From the NCBI GenBank assembly GCA_963787835.1, contig CAWBEI010000004.1:352001-416000 (forward strand): 64,000 nucleotides of DNA, in the 5' to 3' direction. A program made the position numbers and the translations under genes. The DNA comes from Ignavibacteriota bacterium (GTDB lineage Bacteria > Bacteroidota > Ignavibacteria > Palsa-1295). Shown here one piece after another: positions 1,433 to 56,623 of the stretch. Every line of letters starts with the position of its first letter. Within the stretch, counting starts at the first letter, position 1. Below the pieces are notes generated by a model that ran no database searches, was not told the origin of the DNA, and worked only from the letters and a program-made list of their open reading frames with translations.

Positions 1433-2848
1433 ATGAGGCGTTCTTTAGTCCCTATTATTTTACTTGGTTTAGCTTGCATTTCAACTACATCTTCCTATGC
1501 CCAGCGTGGGGTCGCCGGGAAGACATTCATTCTCGATGATGGCAGTGGTAACACGCTGACGCTCGAATATCTCAATGTACCACCGGTTCTTGGCAATTCC
1601 TTCTACAACTTTTTGCCGGGAGGCGGCGCTCCTACACCAGCAGGCTCGGTGAACGGGCAAACGCTCTGGTGGAATAACACCACGAACTTATGGGTCTCAA
1701 ATAATTTCCTGACCAACACGGGATCAGCGATAGGGATCGGCACGGCTTCACCAATCGGGCTCTTATCCAATACCACTGATAACAACTGGGGTTCCGATGC
1801 CAGAGGGATCAATCCAGCAGCCTTCACATGGGTGACCAATACGGGTGGTCACGGTTACGCAGCAAGCGTTACCAACGAAGGCTCGGGAGCGGGAGGATTC
1901 GATGGTCTCCTTGTGAGGGTATGGGATAATCATGCAGGCACCAACGCGTTGGACGTATCCCAAGGCGCTGTTTCACCCAGCACAACGCCAACATCTCTTT
2001 TAACTGTCTATGGTAACGGCGATGTGAACATCGATCCGACCATTGTCGCAGCAACATCCATCGGCAATAGCACAGCCGCAACCAATGTGAATATTACCAG
2101 CGGGAATAAGTGGAGTATTACGAATGCTGGGGCACTCACGACCACTGGTGCGGCTAATATTGCAACCACAGCCGGTCTTACAAATTATTTTGGGAATGGC
2201 GGGGGCACGACTACAAATAATATTGGGAATAATGGCACTAATGCCACTCAGACAACGAACAATATCGGTGGTACAGGGCCAGGGAGTGCAAACATGGTGA
2301 ATGGCATTGGATTTAACGATGGCTCCGGATCGGTCGTGAACCAGTTCGGAGTCGCCTTCTCCACCGGTTCTATACAGAATCAGATCGGTACAAACCAGGG
2401 CACTGGAACAGTCACTAACTATTGGGGGACCTCTAACCACACTGGCACGATCAACAACAGCTTCGGAACTTCCAGCTCCGGCCCAATTAGTAATACCTTT
2501 GGATCGAGCACCGCTGGGTCGAGCAATACCTATAGTGGCGTTTCATCCTTCACTGGGAATGTGACTACCAATGGGACGCTAAGTGCTGCTGGTGCATTTG
2601 GTTTGCATTTCCGGATAGATAATACAGGAAATACAACGGTGAATGGAATTGCCGGGGATGGATTTCTACAGATTACTGGGGGTGCTACAACGGGGTGGGG
2701 TTTGCCGCCAAGTACTACTCCCGGACAAATTTTTATAGTGAATAATCAAACGGGTTCCACTATTGGAGGTGCGCTTACTATCGCGAACGGTAATAGCGCA
2801 ATGTTCATCTACACTGGTTCTGGTTGGCAGCATATCGTTCTTCAATAA
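1433..2848 (+). CDS. Secreted G/T/N-rich beta-repeat fibre or adhesin-like protein
   Basis: SD GGAG; signal peptide ...SSYA/Q; N-terminal LDDGSG motif shared with the gene at 178; GIGTASP motif; NxxG repeats; C-terminal LP..TPGQIFIVNN...MFIYTGSGW module. Confidence 0.8.
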   Translation: MRRSLVPIILLGLACISTTSSYAQRGVAGKTFILDDGSGNTLTLEYLNVPPVLGNSFYNFLPGGGAPTPAGSVNGQTLWWNNTTNLWVSNNFLTNTGSAIGIGTASPIGLLSNTTDNNWGSDARGINPAAFTWVTNTGGHGYAASVTNEGSGAGGFDGLLVRVWDNHAGTNALDVSQGAVSPSTTPTSLLTVYGNGDVNIDPTIVAATSIGNSTAATNVNITSGNKWSITNAGALTTTGAANIATTAGLTNYFGNGGGTTTNNIGNNGTNATQTTNNIGGTGPGSANMVNGIGFNDGSGSVVNQFGVAFSTGSIQNQIGTNQGTGTVTNYWGTSNHTGTINNSFGTSSSGPISNTFGSSTAGSSNTYSGVSSFTGNVTTNGTLSAAGAFGLHFRIDNTGNTTVNGIAGDGFLQITGGATTGWGLPPSTTPGQIFIVNNQTGSTIGGALTIANGNSAMFIYTGSGWQHIVLQ

Positions 2849-2905: not shown

Positions 2906-3350
2906 ACATTGTTGTTGTATCGAGATACTCCTGCAATAAGATCCTCGCTGCCTCTTCATCGCGGAGGGATTTTTTCTCGCGCTTGTGTTTTGGCAATTCA
3001 CGGGAGCGAATGTTCGTTTCCGCGATGAGTGAAGTGAGGCGTTCGTCGCGGGTTTTGAGCACAACGCCGAGGGGTTCAAGGGATTTTGTGAGCTTATCGC
3101 GAAAGCGCAAAACTTCAGTGGTCATTGCACTTTCTGTATTCGAAAGGGTGCGGGGAATTCCGAGAATTACCAATCGGATATGCTCGGATTTCAAGAGGGT
3201 CAGAATTTCCGCGATCATTTTCGGCCCATTTGCAATCACTCCACGTGAGGTGGCGAGCATTTGCATTTCATCAGAAACTGCGATACCGAGGCGCTTGGTA
3301 CCGTAGTCTATGGCTAGAACGCGGCCGTTATTCTTCAAATCGTTCAACAC
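2904..3350 (-). CDS. ruvX: RuvX/YqgF family nuclease (pre-16S rRNA processing)
   Basis: LAIDYGTKRLGIAVSD, DERLTS, DEEAARILLQEYLD motifs. Confidence 0.95.
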   Translation of the reverse strand: MLNDLKNNGRVLAIDYGTKRLGIAVSDEMQMLATSRGVIANGPKMIAEILTLLKSEHIRLVILGIPRTLSNTESAMTTEVLRFRDKLTKSLEPLGVVLKTRDERLTSLIAETNIRSRELPKHKREKKSLRDEEAARILLQEYLDTTTM

Positions 3351-5706
3351 TGGTTACGCCTCTGACTTTCTTCAACTTTTCCATCAGGCGTGCGAGGTGA
3401 TAGGTGTTCTTAACAAAGACAGTAACCTTCCCATCGAACATGGCATCGCGGGAGTCGATATTTACCGAGCGGATATTGGTGTTGTTATAAGTAGAAATCA
3501 CATGGGTAAGATCGCTAGGCATTCCCGGGCGATCTTCACCAAAGATGCGGATGCCGACAAGGTAGTCAGCGCCTTCGTCCGTGCTGGGCCAGGACACATC
3601 GATAAGACGCTTTTCGGAATCCGCTTGGAGCTTTTGGATATTCTTACAATTGGCTCGATGGATCTTTATGCCCTGACCGATCGTCACCACACCGACAACA
3701 TCGTCACCGGGCACCGGATTGCAGCATTTTGCATAGCTATAAAGGAAGTTATCACGTCGCCCCTGAATAAGGATCCCGGTAGTTGCACGCGAGTCGTCGA
3801 GGTAGGTAACGGGTGTTGCAGTCTCTTGTTCTGCTTCTGCTGAAACGGGAGGGCGGTTGCCGGGGCGCAGCCAGTCTCGCAGGCGTTTAAAATATTCTTC
3901 GATGTCGATGTCGGCTGCGGCAACCGCAGCATAGAACTTCCCGACGGTTCCAAAAGGGGTAGTAGCTGCAAAGCGGATCAGGGTATCTTCATTGACATGA
4001 AGTTTGGCTTTGGTCAGACGCTTCTGCCACATTTCACGACCCTGAGCGACACGCACGCGCTGTTCTTCGTTCAAGAATTTGCGAATGTATTGCCGCGCCT
4101 TATGAGTCGCTACAAATTTTTCCCAATCCGCATTAGGAACTTGATTTTTTGAGGTGATGATCTCAACCTGATCGCCACTGGCCAGCTTTTGGTGGAGCGG
4201 GACGATGCGTCCGTTCACTTTTGCGCCAATGGTACGCAATCCGACTTGAGAATGTATCTCAAAGGCAAAATCAACGGCTGTAGCGCCCTTCGGGAGGATG
4301 CGAAGTTCCCCTTTTGGAGTGAATACGTAGATCTCGTCCTGGTAAAGATTAAGCTTAAAGCTTTCGAGCAGAGCGCTTGGCGCGTCTTCACCATGCTGCT
4401 CAAAGACATCACGCACCCATTTGACCCATTCTTCCAGATCCGGATCTGAGGCGGAAATGTGCTCTTTGTACTTCCAGTGTGCCGCAACGCCTTTTTCTGC
4501 GATCTCGTGCATGGCCCGCGTTCGGATCTGCACTTCGACCATTCGCCCATCCGGACCAATGACCGTGGTGTGCAGGGATTGATAGCCATTCTTTTTCGGT
4601 AGCGAAATATAATTCTTGAACCGTTCGGGAACCGGGGTATAGATCGAAGAGACTAATCCAAAGACTGCAAAGCAATCGTTATCATTGGAAGTATCGAGCA
4701 AGATGCGAACGGCGAACAGATCATAGACCTCGTCCAGCGTTTTCCCGAGCCGCATCATTTTATTATAGATGGAGAAAATGTGCTTGGGCCGGCCGACGAT
4801 CTCAAACTTAAAATGTTGTTCCTTGAGCGCTTCCATAATTGGCTCGATGAACCCTGCGATATACGTCTCGCGCTCGATCCGTTTTTCTGCGAGTGCCCGC
4901 TTGATGTTGGTATATGCTTCGCGATTCAGGACCTTGAAGGCCAGATCCTCCAGTTCCCATTTAACCTTACCGAGGCCAAACCGATTCGCGAATGGCGCGT
5001 AAATGTCCAGCGTCTCCTTTGCCATCCGGAACTGCCGCTCGGGAGGCAAATATTCGATCGTCCGCATATTATGCAGACGGTCCGCGAACTTGACGAGCAT
5101 CACACGTACGTCGCCGACCATGGAAAGCAAAAGCTTGCGGTAACTTTCTGCCTGCGTGATCTCACGAGATTTGAAAATATCCGTGATCTTGGTAGCGCCA
5201 TCGACGATATCGGCTACTTCGCTGCCGAACTCTTCGCGAATTTCGTCGATCTGATAAACGGTATCTTCTACGACATCATGTAGCAGGGCGGCGATCACGG
5301 AAATATCGTCGAGCGGGATTTCCTGCGCGACGATCATCGAGACTTCGAACGGATGAATAAAATAAGGTTCACCGGAAGCGCGCCGGTCATTCTTGTGAGC
5401 TTCATAACATAGCCGGAAGGCACGAATGACAAGTTCTTCGTCCAGGAAGTGAAGATTTTTTCGACAGGCCGCCAGCAGTTCGTTCAGCTTGTCGGCATAG
5501 GCTTCGTCATTCGTTGCGCTGGACCATCGAAGGGCGAGGCGGGCAGAGGAGGTTCGGCTATTGGTATTAGATCTGGGCGTGCGCTTATCGGCCAGGTCAC
5601 TCGCCTGGGAGTGACCATTGGTTCCACCTGAGTCCGTAATGGCCACATTGCCTTCGATCGTTACAGCATTCATCGCATTAATGGCAACGTGAGTTCCACC
5701 CTGCAT
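3328..5706 (-). CDS. rel: Bifunctional (p)ppGpp synthetase/hydrolase (long RSH; start uncertain)
   Basis: RASGEPYFIHP, LLHDVVED (HD), KFADRLHNMRT, GYQSLHT, EVQIRT, TGS (DFAFEIHSQVG), AKCCNPVPGD, ACT domain. Confidence 0.97.
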   Translation of the reverse strand: MQGGTHVAINAMNAVTIEGNVAITDSGGTNGHSQASDLADKRTPRSNTNSRTSSARLALRWSSATNDEAYADKLNELLAACRKNLHFLDEELVIRAFRLCYEAHKNDRRASGEPYFIHPFEVSMIVAQEIPLDDISVIAALLHDVVEDTVYQIDEIREEFGSEVADIVDGATKITDIFKSREITQAESYRKLLLSMVGDVRVMLVKFADRLHNMRTIEYLPPERQFRMAKETLDIYAPFANRFGLGKVKWELEDLAFKVLNREAYTNIKRALAEKRIERETYIAGFIEPIMEALKEQHFKFEIVGRPKHIFSIYNKMMRLGKTLDEVYDLFAVRILLDTSNDNDCFAVFGLVSSIYTPVPERFKNYISLPKKNGYQSLHTTVIGPDGRMVEVQIRTRAMHEIAEKGVAAHWKYKEHISASDPDLEEWVKWVRDVFEQHGEDAPSALLESFKLNLYQDEIYVFTPKGELRILPKGATAVDFAFEIHSQVGLRTIGAKVNGRIVPLHQKLASGDQVEIITSKNQVPNADWEKFVATHKARQYIRKFLNEEQRVRVAQGREMWQKRLTKAKLHVNEDTLIRFAATTPFGTVGKFYAAVAAADIDIEEYFKRLRDWLRPGNRPPVSAEAEQETATPVTYLDDSRATTGILIQGRRDNFLYSYAKCCNPVPGDDVVGVVTIGQGIKIHRANCKNIQKLQADSEKRLIDVSWPSTDEGADYLVGIRIFGEDRPGMPSDLTHVISTYNNTNIRSVNIDSRDAMFDGKVTVFVKNTYHLARLMEKLKKVRGVTSVERFEE

Positions 5707-5760: not shown

Positions 5761-7632
5761 TTACTGCCGTTGCACTCCCCACCAGCCATAATAAATAGAA
5801 ATGCCAGCATCTACATTGACTGTTATGATTGGCTGACCCGGTTGAAATACGAAGGTCTTATCCTGCTGCTCACCACCGAACACCCCCGTAGCACCGATCT
5901 GAGCAAACGGTTCAAGGGTATAGCCCTCCCCAAGTTCGAAATCGTGCTTCATGCCGAACAAGAGTTTAAGACCGCTCCTATTCCAGTCCTGTTCGAAAGT
6001 ACTCACATTGGAAGAAGCCTGAGTCGGCGAGAGCATTGTTAGATACTGCTGGCTACTTCGGAAAGCGAGGAATTCATAACCGATTCCTAAATAGAACTTG
6101 ATGGCAGAAGCCGGTCGAGTAATATCATAATGTAGATCGAGTCCAAAAATGCTAGTTCCAAGCGTTTCGCTTTGAAGAAGGTGGGTCGCGCCATTAGGAT
6201 GATATTCTGAAGGATGAGTTGCTGAAGTATCAAATGGCCTGTAGGGATAAGATGGGGGGGTCGGGGGGCCCTGCCCATTGACATAATTAAATACTGAATC
6301 ATTTGGGAAATTATCGCTGATCGTAAAATGTACGAAGGATATTTCCAAATCAAGTCTTCGTGTAAGTTCGGTCGTAAGAGCAATTCCATAAGAAAAAACG
6401 GAAGTAGCCGGAAGTTCAGGAATGCCTAAGTTCGTCTGCATACTTCCTACACCCCCGCTAAAGCCAATTCCAACGGCCCTCCATGGTTCGGGCGTCTCAA
6501 GGAATGCGGCTTGACGGGCTTGATCGGCGATCTGTTGTGCAACCCGAACTGAGTCTTCGCGGACTTGTTCCCTTGCTTTGGCTTGAGCGTCCAATTGTTC
6601 ATTCTGAGCGGACTTGATACTATCCTGACGTCGTTGCTCCGCTTCTTTGGCGAGTTCAGCTTCCTGCTTTATCCGCAATTCCTCTGCCTTACGCCGCTCG
6701 CTGGTAAGAACTGAATCTGGCGGAGCAACTCCGGCTGGCTGTTGAGCAAATGCATTTGTTGCCCCGATGAGCAATCCGAACACACAAATTAATAGAGCAA
6801 GGCTCCGTCGGATCGATCCGGGAGAAATTCGGAATAGAGAGTGTGCATTTGCAAACGTTTGGCTCATTATGATAGAAATATCCTTTTGTTTTAGCTCGGA
6901 GACCTTATGTGCAATGAACGGAAGCATGGCTGGTGAGTTTCGTTTTCCTCGATTTGGAGCAGGTGTCAAATAGGGTGAATCCGTCTCTATAAGAAGCCGA
7001 TCGAGGGGAGTTTCAATTACGACATCCGACAAATTGCTATTCTTAAACGTAATATTACCAGTAAAACTTACATAAAACCCAAGCGAAATGGCTCTATGCA
7101 TCCAGTCCATTCCGGCGGAGAAGCAGTGAAATTGGCCTCTCGGTAACTCTGGCGGAAGTGAAACATAGTGCTCTTCGACGATCCGGAACACATCCTCTTC
7201 TGATTCCCGCGTGTGTATCACAATTGGTTTTTGGAGCTCGATGGCAAGTTCTATCTGCTCAGAGAAGGCTTTCCGTTGAACCTCAGGCGGTGAAAAATCA
7301 TAATGATAATCCAAACCGATTTCCCCGATCGCCACTATTTTAGGCTGGCTCTGAATTTCGGATTGAATACGATCCCTGACTCCTGAATTCCACTCATTCG
7401 CGGAATGCGGGTGGATCCCAAGTGCGCAATAGATATGCTCATGGGTATGAATCAGATTCAGCGTTGGATCAAAACTGACGGAATCAGTGGCTGGGACAAG
7501 AAAATGAGAAACGCCGGCCTGTTCGGACTCTGCAATAACTGCATCACGGTCCGCATCGAATGCACCGTCCTGTAAGTGGCAATGTGCGTCGAACATAGGA
7601 GCCGCATAGAATGTTTTGAGTGGTTCATTCAT
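5761..7632 (-). CDS. tatD: TatD family DNase fused to an internal signal peptide, a coiled coil and a predicted outer-membrane beta-barrel (start 7632 or 7596)
   Basis: DAHCH, GIHPH, AIGEIGLDY, IHTRE, HCFS, ETDSPY; then RRSLALLICVFGLLIGATNAFA/QQ, a Glu/Ala/Gln-rich helix, and amphipathic strands ending NVDAGISIYYGW. Confidence 0.85.
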   Translation of the reverse strand: MNEPLKTFYAAPMFDAHCHLQDGAFDADRDAVIAESEQAGVSHFLVPATDSVSFDPTLNLIHTHEHIYCALGIHPHSANEWNSGVRDRIQSEIQSQPKIVAIGEIGLDYHYDFSPPEVQRKAFSEQIELAIELQKPIVIHTRESEEDVFRIVEEHYVSLPPELPRGQFHCFSAGMDWMHRAISLGFYVSFTGNITFKNSNLSDVVIETPLDRLLIETDSPYLTPAPNRGKRNSPAMLPFIAHKVSELKQKDISIIMSQTFANAHSLFRISPGSIRRSLALLICVFGLLIGATNAFAQQPAGVAPPDSVLTSERRKAEELRIKQEAELAKEAEQRRQDSIKSAQNEQLDAQAKAREQVREDSVRVAQQIADQARQAAFLETPEPWRAVGIGFSGGVGSMQTNLGIPELPATSVFSYGIALTTELTRRLDLEISFVHFTISDNFPNDSVFNYVNGQGPPTPPSYPYRPFDTSATHPSEYHPNGATHLLQSETLGTSIFGLDLHYDITRPASAIKFYLGIGYEFLAFRSSQQYLTMLSPTQASSNVSTFEQDWNRSGLKLLFGMKHDFELGEGYTLEPFAQIGATGVFGGEQQDKTFVFQPGQPIITVNVDAGISIYYGWWGVQRQ

Positions 7633-7772: not shown

Positions 7773-8609
7773 ATGCCACTTCCAATGAATCCGTCGAGTA
7801 ACGCACCGCGAAGAACGGGGGATGTCGCAGCACGCATCAGTGATCATGCGTTGCGCATGAGCGATCATGCCGTGAGCACCGTTCGTATCATAATTACGGC
7901 AGAGGAGCGTGTGCGGCAACGTATTCGTACTGTGGCCCGTGTGGCGCTGGCAACGATCTTTTTTGGTATCTCCGGCCTCATTTCGTTGGGAGCCAATGTC
8001 ACTACGGCCCTTGCAAAAAAAGTGACCCAAAGCCGAGGAAGCAATTCAGTTACCTCGGGAGTTAAAGGTTCTGTTATACACTCCAATGAAGTGGCATCGA
8101 GCCATTCCTCGAAGCGCCATTATAAGCGTGGGGATAAGCTGGCGGCACGGAAGCCCACTGGCTCGCAGATGCGCGGGGTAGCATCGTGGTATGGGAATGA
8201 GTTTCACAATAGAAAAACTGCCAGCGGTATTCTTTTTGACACCCTCTCTATGATGGCCGCTCACCGGTCCTTGCCATTTGGAACCCTGGTTCGTGTTACG
8301 AATCTTCGGAATCATCGATCGTGCGTGGTCGAAATCACCGACCGAGGTCCATTCTCCCACGGACGAATCATTGATCTTAGCCATGCAGCCGCCGAACAAA
8401 TCGGTATGATGGAGTCTGGAATTGCAAGGGTTCAGCTCGAGGTTGTCGGTCATGCCGCTCCGTTCGGATCTGACGAGCTTGCGTTTGTAATGCATGCACC
8501 TGCGGTCGATAAACTTGCGCCTTCTACCGGGAGTCGCCTGAATGTGATGCAAGCTTATGAAAGCAGCACAAACGATATGATCGTGGACCGAGAACTTAGC
8601 GGGCACTGA
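7773..8609 (+). CDS. rlpA: Septal ring lytic transglycosylase RlpA family protein
   Basis: GVASWYG...KTASG, AAHRSLPFGT, ITDRGPF, IIDLS (DPBB domain); N-terminal membrane or signal segment. Confidence 0.9.
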   Translation: MPLPMNPSSNAPRRTGDVAARISDHALRMSDHAVSTVRIIITAEERVRQRIRTVARVALATIFFGISGLISLGANVTTALAKKVTQSRGSNSVTSGVKGSVIHSNEVASSHSSKRHYKRGDKLAARKPTGSQMRGVASWYGNEFHNRKTASGILFDTLSMMAAHRSLPFGTLVRVTNLRNHRSCVVEITDRGPFSHGRIIDLSHAAAEQIGMMESGIARVQLEVVGHAAPFGSDELAFVMHAPAVDKLAPSTGSRLNVMQAYESSTNDMIVDRELSGH

Positions 8610-10031: not shown

Positions 10032-10708
10032 CAGGGAAACTTTGGATCGTATCCGTTCCCATCGGTAATCCGCTTGACATTACCTTTCGTGCCATTGAGG
10101 AGTTGAAAAACGCGGACACCATTCTTTGCGAAGATCTGAAACCTGCGCGTCGGCTCTTACATGAACTCAAGATCGAGAAACCATTGCTTCCGCTTAATGA
10201 ACATACGGATGTGGAGGCAACATCAGAAGCGCTCACCATTCTTCTTTCCGGAAAAGATCTCGCGCTGATCTCCGATGCGGGCACCCCACTTGTTGCCGAC
10301 CCGGGGCAGAGGCTGGTGCGTTTGGCTATTGAGCAGGGGATTGAGGTTTCACCTGTTCCGGGGGCTTCGAGCGTTCTCGCGGCGTTAGTGGTAAGTGGCT
10401 TTCGATCCGATCATTTTTATTTCGCAGGCATGCTGCCCCGCGAGAAAACCGATCGGAAAAACGCAGCTCGCAAGCTTGCCTCGCGAAACGAAACGATCGT
10501 CATACTGGAAGCTCCATACCGACTCTCGCAGCTATTAGATGATCTTATTAGCGGGTTTGGTAACGACCGCCGAATCTCGGTAGCTATGGATATTTCAATG
10601 CCTAAGGAACGTGTTGCCCGCGGGACGCTCTTAGCAATACGTGATTTGTTTGCAGCGAATCCATTCAAGGGCGAATTTGTCATTGTCATCGAAGGCCGCC
10701 GTTCGTAG
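10028..10708 (+). CDS. rsmI: 16S rRNA C1402 2'-O-methyltransferase
   Basis: PIGNPLDITFRA, CED, LISDAGTPLVADPG, PVPGAS, EAPYRL, KGEFVIVI. Confidence 0.95.
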   Translation: MTGKLWIVSVPIGNPLDITFRAIEELKNADTILCEDLKPARRLLHELKIEKPLLPLNEHTDVEATSEALTILLSGKDLALISDAGTPLVADPGQRLVRLAIEQGIEVSPVPGASSVLAALVVSGFRSDHFYFAGMLPREKTDRKNAARKLASRNETIVILEAPYRLSQLLDDLISGFGNDRRISVAMDISMPKERVARGTLLAIRDLFAANPFKGEFVIVIEGRRS

Positions 10709-10721
10709 GAGCGCAGTTCGC

Positions 10722-13700
10722 GTGGGCGCGCGGGAATTTGTTCCAATCAGACTCCGGGCGCAATTTTATGCGCCGATGTGTGTCGTGCTCTTTTTGCTTT
10801 TAAGCGCCGCGGTTGGTCATACGCAGACTCGCACGCTTTTGGTCACACTTCATTCGATCAACGATTCCGTTGTTGTATTATCCGATAATTTCCCAGATTT
10901 TTCTACACTGCGCATTCAGGTCGATTCTTCATTTTTCTTGATCGATCAGAAGGATGTTACCATCGATACGGCGGGACGAGCGATCGTACTTTCACCAAGC
11001 AGCCGCTCGCTTCTTTTCCCGATGAATTCGGCAGCTGGCGTAAAGCATACTCTTACTCTAACCTACACGGCGCTCCCATTGAACCTGAAGACGAGCTATA
11101 CGAGACATGAACTTGAAACCCCTGCACTGAATGATTCTTTGCGCACTTTGATCGATAGTTCAAAGCAAGGCCTGCGAGAAATTTCCTCAACATCCGCTGA
11201 TACGACTCACGCCGATATTCTCAATAATTTTCAGAAATCTGGCTCCATAAGCCGCGGGTTCCAGGTTGGTTCGAACCGCGATCTGGGATTGACAAGTGGG
11301 TTTAATCTGCAATTTTCTGGAGACGTAGCAAAAGATGTGAACATCACTGGTGCCCTTACCGAAGAGCAAACCCCGATCCAGCCGGAAGGCACAACCCAAA
11401 CGCTGAACGAGATCGACAATATCTTTATCCGCATCAAAGCTGGTCAGCATTTCACGTCCACGCTTGGAGATTTCACGCTGGATCTTAATTCACCTGCGGA
11501 CCCAACGCGATTGGCTTCTCATTCGACGCTCAACGATACTTTAAAGACGCATTCTATCGATAGCAGCCGCTCATCGCAATCACCGACGAATATTATTCCC
11601 ATCATTACAAATGTGCAAGACCAGGCCTTCAATGCATTCAGTCAGAGTACGCTTGATGTGATCTCTCGTAAACTCATCGGTGCGGAGGCAACGGCGCAGT
11701 TCAACGAGGGTTCCGTTACAGTTGCTGGCGGCGCTCCCCGCGGTGAATTTACCACGAACACCATGCAGGGGCAGGAAGCCTATCAAGGGCCTTATACGCT
11801 CGTGGGTAAGAATGGCGAGCCAGCGATCCTCATTGTAGCGGGAACCGAGCATGTCTATGTGGATGGTGTGCTTCAGACTCGCGGCGAGCGAAATGATTAC
11901 ATCATTGATTACGCGCTCGACCAGATCACTTTTCAACCACGCAGGCTCATTACCAGCGATTCAAGAATCGTTATCGATTTCGAATATTCCGATCAGCAAT
12001 ACAATAAGTCTCTTTTTGCTGCGAACATAAAGGGGCAACTTTTGGATGGTGCGCTCAAGATCTCGACAACCTATTTACGCGAGGGAGATAATCAGGATGC
12101 GCCGCTCGATCTTTCGCTTTCCGACAGCGATCAAAATATTCTCGCGAATGCCGGCGCAGACCCATCGAAGGCCACGAAATCTGCGGTGACCTACGCAGGC
12201 GTCGATGCGAACGGGCGTGCGCAGGGAAGTTACTCGGTTGCGGATACCACTATTGCCGGAAAAGCCATTGTGTTTTACCGTTACGCGCCGCTCGATTCTG
12301 TGAATGCCCTCTATAATATTGCGTTCGGATATGCTGGAACCGGGAAGGGCAGTTATGTGCGGCTTGCCATCGGCCAATTTCTATTTGCCGGGCTGGGACT
12401 TGGCGATTACGACACTCTCGCGTTTCTCCCATTGCCAGAATTGCATCAAGTCATGGCGGTGAGCAGCAGCCTGCGCATTACCAATAATTTCGGGCTGACC
12501 GGAGAATACGCTGAAAGTATTCTCGATCCAAACCGCTTCGCAAACATTCCTTCGATCGACGGCAATGCGTATCACTTCGGTGCGTTGTTTGCCGATACGC
12601 TCTCAATATTTGGTTACACGGAGTTCCGGGCAACGGAGCGAAACTTCGGAGCGCAATTTACTCCGATCGACCGCATTCAGGATGCGGAATTCGAACGGCT
12701 ATATGGTAACGATATGCAAACGCCGAACTCCTATGCTTCCACGCTGCCGGTTACAGGGGAATTAAATCGCGAAGCCGATCTTACCATACATCCAGTCCGT
12801 TCCTTTATCCTGGAGGGAGGATTTGGCTCTCTCGAAGAGCCGCAGCTTCAATTTATTTCATCTCGCGTGTTCGGTCATGCCGAACTGCTTGAAGATTCCG
12901 GAATGCTCCCTCATGCTGCTATCACAATCGAACATTTGCCGACGCATGATTCCTCGATCCTGGAGCAAGCCCAGTGGGATCGGCAAATTGGTGAACTATC
13001 GAAATCTATGAAACTGGGAGCCAATGGATTTACGCTTGGTCTTCAATACGCCCATGAGGAAAAACAAGCCACGCCGTTCGATACCGTCGGGCTTGCCGCC
13101 GACTCGATGACGCTGCACAGTTTTGAATATCGATCGATCACTCCCATTGCTTCGCTTCGCCTCGGACCTAAAGTTACCCTTAGCGGTTCCTACGAAGTTC
13201 GTTCCGATGACAGCGCCCGCAGTGGCTTTCTTACCCCCATCAGTGAAGCGCACACGAGCCATATCACCGCAGCGATCTTTGGAATAGGCGGCTTCAGCAC
13301 CAATATCGATCTCACCGTTCGCGATAAACGCTATACCGATTCCACCTCCTACGCGGTGAATGGCGGGAATCAATCGACCCTCCTGCTTCGCTTCGAGCCG
13401 CGCTATACCCTGGCCAATCGGGGAATAAGCGCTGAAGCATTGTATGAGATCTCCAATCAACGGGCGGCGCAGTTGCAGCGCGTGTTCGTGCCGGTGCCGC
13501 AAGGATTGGGAACGTACTATTACGTGGGCGATCTCAATCACGATGGTAAAGCCGATCCGAACGATTTTGCTCCAGCCGTTTATGCGGATCAAGGCGATTA
13601 CGTTCTTATTACTGTTCCCACGACGCAGCTTTTTCCTACGACCGATCTTAAATCCAATTTCAGATTACACATCGACCCGCGGGATCTATTTGGTCTTCAA

Positions 13701-14531
13701 AATCCTTCGAACCTCCTGCAAACGGCGTTAGCGAATATCTCCAGCGAGTCCTACATCAAGATCGAGGAAACAAGCACCGATACCGTACCGAGCGATATTT
13801 ATTTCTTCCGGCTGTCGCATTTTCGCAATGATTCGACTACGATAAACGGCACAATGGAGATCGGGCAGGATTTCAATATCATGGAGAATAATGCCGACGA
13901 GTCCTACCGCTTGCATTATCTGGAACGTGAGTCAGCGGCGCAATATAATACTGGCCTCGAACACTCGTTCCAGGCCGAGCGATCCATTCGCGGAAGGTTT
14001 CGGCCTTCGTTCGAATTTTCGAATGAAACGACCATCACGTCGAGCACCGATCAGTCCGGCGGGGATTCGCTTTCGGTGAATCCACCACATAATACTTCCT
14101 CGCTTGGCATCTCCACGGATTGGAGCTACCATCCCATCGGTTCTAAGTTCGATTTTGGTGCCGTAGCTGCTTTTTCGCGGGCCGTTGAGCATATCTATAA
14201 CCCCGAAGTTACTGGGCTAACAGATGCTTTCACATTTCGGACCAGTTACGCGCTGGAAACTCGAACTCGCATTCGCGCCCAGATCGAACGCGACGAACTT
14301 AACCTTTCTGCACTGCCGAGCGATATTATTTCGCTCCCCTATGCGCTTACGCAGGGAAAAGCCGTTGGAGAAACATGGGTCTGGAGCCTTGCGCTGGATT
14401 ATCAATTTGGAAGCGGCATCGTAGCAACGATCGCCTACGATGGCCGAAACGAATCCAGCGACCTGCTCGGCACCTCCGGCCAGCGAGTGACCATCAATAA
14501 TGCACGGGCGGAGGTACGAGCTAATTTCTGA
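10722..14531 (+). CDS. Large conserved FCB-type outer-membrane beta-barrel protein (start 10722 GTG or 10776)
   Basis: Signal peptide; SGSISRG...PIQPEG.TQ.L and QGPY.L.G...RGE.NDY.IDY motifs reminiscent of SprA/Sov-like N-terminal regions; long beta-strand C-terminal half ending in F (EVRANF). Confidence 0.75.
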   Translation: MGAREFVPIRLRAQFYAPMCVVLFLLLSAAVGHTQTRTLLVTLHSINDSVVVLSDNFPDFSTLRIQVDSSFFLIDQKDVTIDTAGRAIVLSPSSRSLLFPMNSAAGVKHTLTLTYTALPLNLKTSYTRHELETPALNDSLRTLIDSSKQGLREISSTSADTTHADILNNFQKSGSISRGFQVGSNRDLGLTSGFNLQFSGDVAKDVNITGALTEEQTPIQPEGTTQTLNEIDNIFIRIKAGQHFTSTLGDFTLDLNSPADPTRLASHSTLNDTLKTHSIDSSRSSQSPTNIIPIITNVQDQAFNAFSQSTLDVISRKLIGAEATAQFNEGSVTVAGGAPRGEFTTNTMQGQEAYQGPYTLVGKNGEPAILIVAGTEHVYVDGVLQTRGERNDYIIDYALDQITFQPRRLITSDSRIVIDFEYSDQQYNKSLFAANIKGQLLDGALKISTTYLREGDNQDAPLDLSLSDSDQNILANAGADPSKATKSAVTYAGVDANGRAQGSYSVADTTIAGKAIVFYRYAPLDSVNALYNIAFGYAGTGKGSYVRLAIGQFLFAGLGLGDYDTLAFLPLPELHQVMAVSSSLRITNNFGLTGEYAESILDPNRFANIPSIDGNAYHFGALFADTLSIFGYTEFRATERNFGAQFTPIDRIQDAEFERLYGNDMQTPNSYASTLPVTGELNREADLTIHPVRSFILEGGFGSLEEPQLQFISSRVFGHAELLEDSGMLPHAAITIEHLPTHDSSILEQAQWDRQIGELSKSMKLGANGFTLGLQYAHEEKQATPFDTVGLAADSMTLHSFEYRSITPIASLRLGPKVTLSGSYEVRSDDSARSGFLTPISEAHTSHITAAIFGIGGFSTNIDLTVRDKRYTDSTSYAVNGGNQSTLLLRFEPRYTLANRGISAEALYEISNQRAAQLQRVFVPVPQGLGTYYYVGDLNHDGKADPNDFAPAVYADQGDYVLITVPTTQLFPTTDLKSNFRLHIDPRDLFGLQNPSNLLQTALANISSESYIKIEETSTDTVPSDIYFFRLSHFRNDSTTINGTMEIGQDFNIMENNADESYRLHYLERESAAQYNTGLEHSFQAERSIRGRFRPSFEFSNETTITSSTDQSGGDSLSVNPPHNTSSLGISTDWSYHPIGSKFDFGAVAAFSRAVEHIYNPEVTGLTDAFTFRTSYALETRTRIRAQIERDELNLSALPSDIISLPYALTQGKAVGETWVWSLALDYQFGSGIVATIAYDGRNESSDLLGTSGQRVTINNARAEVRANF

Positions 14532-54875: not shown

Positions 54876-56374
<1,499 letters not shown>

Positions 56375-56623
56375 TGCTATGGATCCGCAGAGGATCCACG
56401 ACCCGGTCTTACGATCGGTCGAATGTTTGGATAACGTCAAGGTTCTTCACGGGCCTGTTATCTAAATGCACAAACAATGGGCTATTATATAGTCCGGAAC
56501 AGGCATCAGCAATGATGTTTAGTTCGAAGGTGAATCTCACTAACCGAATCGAATACGCTACGCGTATCGACATCATGTTGACCCTTCTGTTTTGATGGCG
56601 TTTTAAGACGAGTAATCGTCGGG

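Follow-up and report, generated by a model that had tools for sequence, protein, structure and literature searches.

The window, by which we mean the whole stretch of 64,000 nucleotides that was analysed, carries on its minus strand a single open frame in which a TatD-type domain runs into an internal signal peptide and a predicted outer-membrane protein. The features of this locus are the following:

5761..7632, minus strand: single open frame of 623 aa, identified by its stop-free translation; the long form (TatD, signal peptide and outer-membrane protein)
6829..7596, minus strand: TatD/YcfH-type metal-dependent nuclease domain, residues 13-268 (PF01026, TIGR00010)
6865..6891, minus strand: predicted internal in-frame start, the ATG of M256 (6867-6865); the region before it is A/T-rich and holds no convincing Shine-Dalgarno (SD) sequence
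6745..6867, minus strand: signal peptide of the short form, M256-A296, 41 aa, with the h-region at 278-289 and the cleavage site A294-x-A296/Q297
6499..6702, minus strand: long charged helix, residues 311-378, predicted to be periplasmic (AlphaFold2), with the D337 and D360 motifs inside
5788..6474, minus strand: predicted 8-stranded outer-membrane beta-barrel, residues 387-615, of the OmpA/OmpW/NspA fold (AlphaFold2, fold searches)
3328..5706, minus strand: relA/spoT homolog, 54 bases past the stop of the fusion; a neighbour in the window protein's own family (f1) only
7773..8609, plus strand: divergent gene with a DPBB_1 domain (Pfam, PF03330), presumably RlpA-like

Some other frames were noticed on the way. 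Three Gly/Thr/Asn-rich frames lie at 175-2848 of the window (plus strand); two have signal-peptide-like N-termini ending in A/Q, and a 471-aa frame among the three has no Pfam match. The frame at 10641-14531 (plus strand, 1,296 aa) matches neither Pfam nor NCBIfam, but by eye it shows a signal-peptide-like stretch, many strand-like segments and a C-terminal Phe, and it may encode a large outer-membrane protein. At about 1,864,000-1,914,000 of G000:C2, near the contig end, there are two Ala/Arg-rich frames whose composition seems to set them apart from the genome as a whole; they may be foreign or mis-binned.

The frame starts at M1 (7632), with M13 (7596) as an alternative, and its N-terminal part is a member of the PF01026/TIGR00010 family (PF01026: E-value 1.4e-76, 257.7 bits, cut-off 27; TIGR00010: 248.5 bits, cut-off 206). 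Its best relative of solved structure is PDB entry 2gzx (E-value 5.7e-50), and a nuclease role is predicted for it. Among 40 fused homologs, H19, E104, H140, H169, E216 and D218 are conserved without exception and H17 in at least 90%; we take these to be the metal-binding and catalytic residues of TatD (HxH, E, H, H, ETD). The preliminary description, which was made from the letters of this DNA alone, was therefore right in recognizing a complete TatD domain with its metal-binding motifs. The domain stays below the equivalog cut-offs of E. coli TatD, YcfH, YjjV and QatD, the score for the anti-phage TatD QatD (NF041926) being 91.3 bits with a cut-off of 230. It is the only TatD copy in the whole genome (3.57 Mb, 98% complete). 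In the AlphaFold2 model of the full-length protein, the last TatD helix comprises residues 252-266 and contains M256, with a pLDDT of 96-97.

The segment that follows comprises R275-R276, the strongly hydrophobic h-region (best 11-residue hydropathy 3.19; best 19-residue hydropathy 2.24, median of the homologs 1.93) and A294-F295-A296/Q297. Judged from pattern and conservation, it corresponds to the Q-rule pattern of signal peptidase I and looks cleavable. In 99 of the 105 fused homologs a Gln follows a small residue 10-42 residues past TatD, and the residue at -1 is Ala in 89 and Ser in 10 of these; five of the remaining six have a comparable signal in which +1 is not Gln. The basic n-region, hydrophobic core, AxA site and Gln at +1 that had been read from this one sequence are thus found again in the relatives. 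In Bacteroidetes, substrates of signal peptidase I typically carry Gln at +1, with a share of 77% reached in Ignavibacterium album (PMC5837995). LepB, RseP and Ffh are all encoded in the genome, and the glutaminyl cyclase profile PF05096 has no match in it, a profile that also misses the Bacteroides control. The full-length model shows the h-region as a separate helix and the cleavage region as exposed and of low confidence. The preliminary description had also stressed that no Met directly precedes the h-region. This is correct, but M256, 41 codons ahead of the cleavage site, acts like a conserved internal start, and the n-region of the resulting signal peptide overlaps the last TatD helix. 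A crude scan for internal-signal patterns among 3,053 ORFs of this genome gave nine matches, and the others appeared by eye to be mis-chosen upstream starts or plain membrane anchors.

For the mature C-terminal part, an AlphaFold2 model was built with 43 homologs (mean pLDDT 83). It consists of a 68-residue helix (residues 15-82 of the mature chain) and eight subsequent strands, so that the long charged helix and the barrel-like strands that had been suspected behind the signal both reappear in the model. Foldseek matches the barrel to OmpA (E-value 1.2e-7), and VIA yields Z-scores of 16-19 and rmsd values of 2.1-3.9 with OmpA, OmpW, NspA and OprF. PF13505 matches 11 of the 43 barrel homologs (E-values up to 0.05, best 4.9e-7) but not the window protein itself, and the barrel profile has no sequence match in the PDB. 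The C-terminal half is therefore predicted to be an 8-stranded barrel of the OmpA/OmpW type, and from this fold together with the signal peptide we infer its location in the outer membrane.

The long helix is confined to the window protein's family f1; it is absent from the five other families aligned, in which only about 20-45 residues lie between signal and barrel. All four D-S/T-hydrophobic sequons listed in the preliminary description were found, at D306 (just before the helix), D337, D360 and D445, and a fifth one lies at D50 inside TatD. We presume that these motifs are O-glycosylation sites. In 27 f1 members 114 of them were observed where 23.2 were expected, and the enrichment in the C-terminal halves is 2.8-fold overall and 4.9-fold in f1, as compared to 0.6-fold in the TatD part; there is no enrichment in the families f7 and f17.

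The profile of the barrel half matches 118 of 401 genomes of the class, 115 of them strongly and three with weak generic barrels only. The strong matches are essentially single-copy and belong to ten families, in which they cover 115 of 119 genomes; the four genomes without a match are 67-70% complete. Relatives of this group are labelled Candidatus Kapabacteria at NCBI. No match was detected outside the ten families in a phylum sample of 301 genomes, and the search for a stand-alone ancestor of the barrel yielded just the weak generic barrels, in three genomes of the families f5 and f16 (E-value about 1e-6).

We compared the junction in 109 loci from 108 genomes of the ten families. TatD and signal share one frame in 105 of them; three of the other four end at a contig edge and the fourth (G006) has two frameshifts at homopolymer runs. 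The stop-free passage from TatD into the signal, which had been noticed in the single 623-aa frame, is therefore present in nearly all of the relatives' loci as well. An assembly error or a lost stop in the source genome is ruled out by these loci and by a contig of run X1 (162 bases, 6750-6911) that spans the TatD/signal junction with 0 differences, although this contig does not count as independent support since run X1 may be the source sample. One of the 105 fused genes (G021; L017, about 2257-2259, minus strand) has a TAG in its long helix, past the cleavage site, and is either a pseudogene or affected by an assembly error.

The other families sampled possess TatD alone (31 loci) or TatD with a radical SAM domain (32 loci). 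In a FastTree tree of 168 TatD cores, from which the last helix was excluded, the 105 fused sequences form one branch (SH-like support 92), and the TatD-barrel fusion traces to a single origin on this TatD tree. A weakly placed sister lineage, consisting of the families f6, f18 and f23 (L083-L086, L093, L094, L105, L106), has an unfused tatD with the gene for an ABC ATPase close behind it, which looks to us like LptB.

For the comparison of the internal starts, M256 was set as position 0 and a stretch of nine codons (-6 to +2) was picked on the first sample. An ATG is present in this stretch in 45 of 48 fused genes of the first sample and in 54 of 57 fused genes fetched later, and the latter are a fair test, since the stretch had been chosen before on the former. 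Overall, 99 of 105 fused genes have the ATG, in comparison to four of 63 unfused TatDs (all four at -6) and to a background of 14% of all nine-codon stretches in the TatD core. Between -5 and +8, Met is absent from all 63 unfused TatDs. The ATG is found at 0 in f1 (25 of 27 genes), mostly at +2 in f4, f7, f17, f22 and f33, and at -6 or -4 in f19 and f29; altogether, the Met occupies at least six positions of the helix. Reading the tree by eye, the internal ATG has shifted about 15 times, and it was replaced by another ATG in about 13 cases, by GTG or TTG in two and by nothing in one. Two of the six fused genes without an ATG between -6 and +2 have one at +8, three have GTG or TTG only, and one (G359) has none of the three codons there. 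Among 67 proteins examined from a 50%-identity library (the 65 best-ranked new ones and two earlier ones, of 93 matches), 35 are full fusions with a Met at -6 to +8 in 31 of the 34 that could be anchored, and most of the others resemble fragments or calls made at the internal start.

Matches to the anti-SD sequence were defined with the 16S 3' end of the source genome and a threshold of -4 kcal or better. This 3' end lies in the window itself (about 56,330-56,375, plus strand), where the anti-SD is intact despite the SD-poor starts of the genome: AGGAG precedes only 2.8% of 250 starts. An SD match before the internal ATG is common in f19 (17/17), f7 (17/21), f17 (6/8) and f22 (5/8) and rare in f1 (6/25) and f4 (4/17), and the latter two families have no SD excess at this site (f1: observed -2.4, expected -2.6 kcal; f4: -2.2 and -3.4 kcal). 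Where such a site exists, it moves with the ATG. The 27 genes with an ATG only at +2 have an SD before +2 in 22 cases and before -6 in none, and all 19 genes with an ATG at -6 have an SD before -6, nine of them with an additional SD-like match before +2. Moreover, the Glu codon that forms the SD is GAG in 16 of 16 f7 genes, while GAG and GAA occur in a ratio of 86:309 in the TatD cores of this family. In 101 genes, synonymous positions near the ATG fall below expectation in GC (mean difference -0.025), and structure there is weaker than expected (+1.0 kcal), unlike at control positions; the p-values overstate the effect because the genomes are related.

Since the SD signal is absent in f1, the case for M256 is made by conservation and by its A/T-rich context. 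On a start profile of its own genome, trained on 250 starts near an upstream stop (a choice that favours A/T), M256 stands at the 98.9th percentile when compared with 13,872 internal ATGs and at the 44th when compared with the 250 true starts; M236 also scores fairly high (96th percentile). A scan for promoters and terminators gave no signal, with four promoter-like sites where 2.9 were expected and one terminator-like site where 2.2 were expected. In view of the comparative evidence, we consider it very likely that the conserved in-frame ATG in or near the last TatD helix serves as an internal initiation site in the clade. The preliminary description had assumed a single translation product with TatD and barrel in a fixed 1:1 ratio and had itself given an independent start at the last-helix Met as a finding that would refute it. 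Such initiation now has strong comparative support, and the assumption of a fixed ratio from a single product is not supported. Besides, in all 17 f7 genes compared the internal SD is stronger than the one before tatD itself, and in all 16 f4 genes it is the weaker of the two; this reversed order suggests that the ratio of TatD to barrel probably varies.

Taken together, we consider it rather likely that two overlapping genes share one frame here, namely tatD and a barrel gene with its own start, and that the products of both starts are cut at the A/Q site. Ribosomes starting at M256 would produce an outer-membrane protein precursor with a 41-residue signal, which would pass through Sec, be cut by signal peptidase I and reach the outer membrane. 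Most of the barrel probably arises by this route, so that the ratio to TatD need not be 1:1. Ribosomes starting at M1 or M13 would produce the entire TatD-signal-barrel protein, whose TatD part would fold in the cytoplasm. Its internal signal would then insert N-in, as a signal anchor does. The cut by signal peptidase I would release a second copy of the barrel and leave TatD attached to a stub in the membrane, about 28 residues long, that RseP may trim later. A long form has to be made, as TatD lacks both another copy and a conserved exit and M256 lies inside its confidently folded last helix. A cut by signal peptidase followed by a site-2 protease has been described for RsiP (PMC8844934).

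The overlap itself may keep the two genes together. As the barrel start lies upstream of the TatD end in the same frame, a simple stop past TatD would end the translation of the barrel, too, and since it would likely silence the barrel in this way, the fusion may be locked in. An escape would first need a new start and a new n-region further downstream. The downstream neighbours vary among the families (relA/spoT, upp, a Prc protease) while the junction stays constant. This does not require nuclease and barrel to be functionally linked, and a neutral lock and selection for a tethered TatD fit the data equally. The lock may be escapable. In L187 (490-560; the contig behind P0003), which comes from a close relative, a TAA stands two codons past the internal Met, and further downstream there is another ATG that has a basic n-region of its own. 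This may be an escape from the overlap, but a newly arisen allele or a single-base error is just as probable, since the stop cuts the last TatD helix and the residues behind it are still conserved. P0030/P0101 (two sources), a barrel homolog of 251 aa, has a signal at its N-terminus but no remnant of the TatD helix, and may represent a separated barrel gene.

The strongest competitor of the two-gene reading, though a rather unlikely one, also accepts all the evidence for the internal start (ATG conservation and SD sites), but has this start produce the entire barrel: the long form would stay unexported, its tail would be trimmed or degraded in the cytoplasm to yield a soluble TatD, and the overlap would merely be tolerated without any polyprotein. 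A signal 260 residues away from the N-terminus might indeed be poorly recognized. On the other hand, the h-region is strongly hydrophobic, as given above, and Ffh is encoded; the sole TatD of the cell would be at risk of aggregating if its barrel tail were not exported; and membrane-anchored anti-sigma factors are cut internally by signal peptidases, as described for RsiP (PMC8844934). The opposite view, a pure polyprotein with one start, one precursor and a signal peptidase cut that gives TatD and barrel 1:1, appears improbable to us. It could draw on the universal in-frame junction, the conserved A/Q site, the missing SD excess in f1 and f4 and the lack of ATG, GTG and TTG between -6 and +2 in G359. 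However, a Met of purely structural importance would hardly shift among at least six helix positions and be missing between -5 and +8 in all 63 unfused TatDs, nor would the SD site be expected to move with it and to favour a rare synonymous codon.

Two further explanations have little to recommend them. If the translation of TatD stopped near residue 268 by programmed frameshifting or other recoding, no long form would accumulate and the tolerated absence of a stop would be accounted for, but the +1 and -1 frames of 21 loci meet their first stop anywhere between 0 and 175 codons past the Met, and no conserved slippery run was seen by eye in the junction codons of these loci; we regard this as very improbable. 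Slightly less credible still is the other possibility raised in the preliminary description, an uncleaved trans-envelope protein that would couple the nuclease in the cytoplasm to a channel in the outer membrane, for the uptake or surveillance of DNA. The 68-residue helix between signal and barrel in f1 would suit such a protein. Since this helix is specific to f1, a general envelope-spanning design is argued against, and the gap of about 20-45 residues in the other families aligned leaves no counterpart of it. In addition, the cleavage site is conserved, and 8-stranded barrels of the OmpA/OmpW class are too narrow to let DNA pass.

If the two-gene reading is true, two unrelated bacterial genes have shared part of one frame for as long as a large clade has existed, and the last helix of a cytoplasmic enzyme is at the same time the start and n-region of the export signal of another protein. 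Such an arrangement would also provide a natural case for testing if Sec and signal peptidase I can process a signal behind a folded 260-residue domain, and it offers a neutral ratchet toward permanent gene fusion. In a wider form, the proposal says that the clade makes its sole TatD as a signal-peptidase-processed polyprotein with a barrel tail, next to the barrel's own start, that TatD is thereafter tethered to the membrane or released by RseP in a controlled manner, and that in-frame gene locks are perhaps a wider class; here we see the chances for and against as about even. There is also an annotation blind spot, as databases call these frames only "TatD family hydrolase", which hides a predicted outer-membrane protein that is single-copy and present across the clade. 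The TatD-barrel fusion is at the same time a clean marker for this clade.

Our targeted search of mainly openly accessible literature found no published description of the TatD-barrel fusion. Its parts do have relatives. The TatD part is similar to TatD/YcfH/YabD (PF01026, TIGR00010; PDB 2gzx, 6l25, 1yix) in its full length, its metal ligands and its occurrence as a single housekeeping copy, but differs from them in lacking a stop and in a last helix that doubles as the n-region of a signal peptide. The barrel shares its predicted fold with the OmpA transmembrane domain, OmpW, NspA and OprF, although its identity to the OmpA, OmpW, NspA and OprF chains is at most 15% and its family was found only in the Kapabacteria-type clade. 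A C-terminal partner of TatD is also present in the TatD-radical SAM fusion (TIGR04038; 32 sampled loci of the same class), but this partner is cytoplasmic, has no signal peptide and shows the internal ATG in none of the 32 loci.

With regard to the mechanism, the FbcH precursor of cytochrome b-c1 in Bradyrhizobium is a polyprotein that is cut at an internal signal site. It joins two subunits of one complex, whereas the TatD-barrel fusion has unrelated partners, which the periplasm would separate from each other once both are in place. In-frame internal starts are described for ArcB-C and SpeA of E. coli (10.1101/520783) and for CheA, CcmM and SpaO (PMC13515050). In these cases a second start in the same frame yields a separate C-terminal protein that is sometimes relocated, but the short forms in these examples belong to the same functional protein and often lose a signal. 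The short form of the TatD-barrel fusion would be an unrelated protein that gains an N-terminal signal, with its start inside the fold of the upstream enzyme. RsiP and RsiV resemble the proposed long form in being membrane-anchored proteins that are cut by signal peptidase and then by a site-2 protease (PMC8844934 for RsiP); the cleavage of RsiP is a regulated destruction, unlike the processing proposed here. The fusion is thus real and clade-wide, and judging from the sequences compared it seems to combine two known kinds of arrangement, the in-frame internal start and the internal cleavage by signal peptidase.
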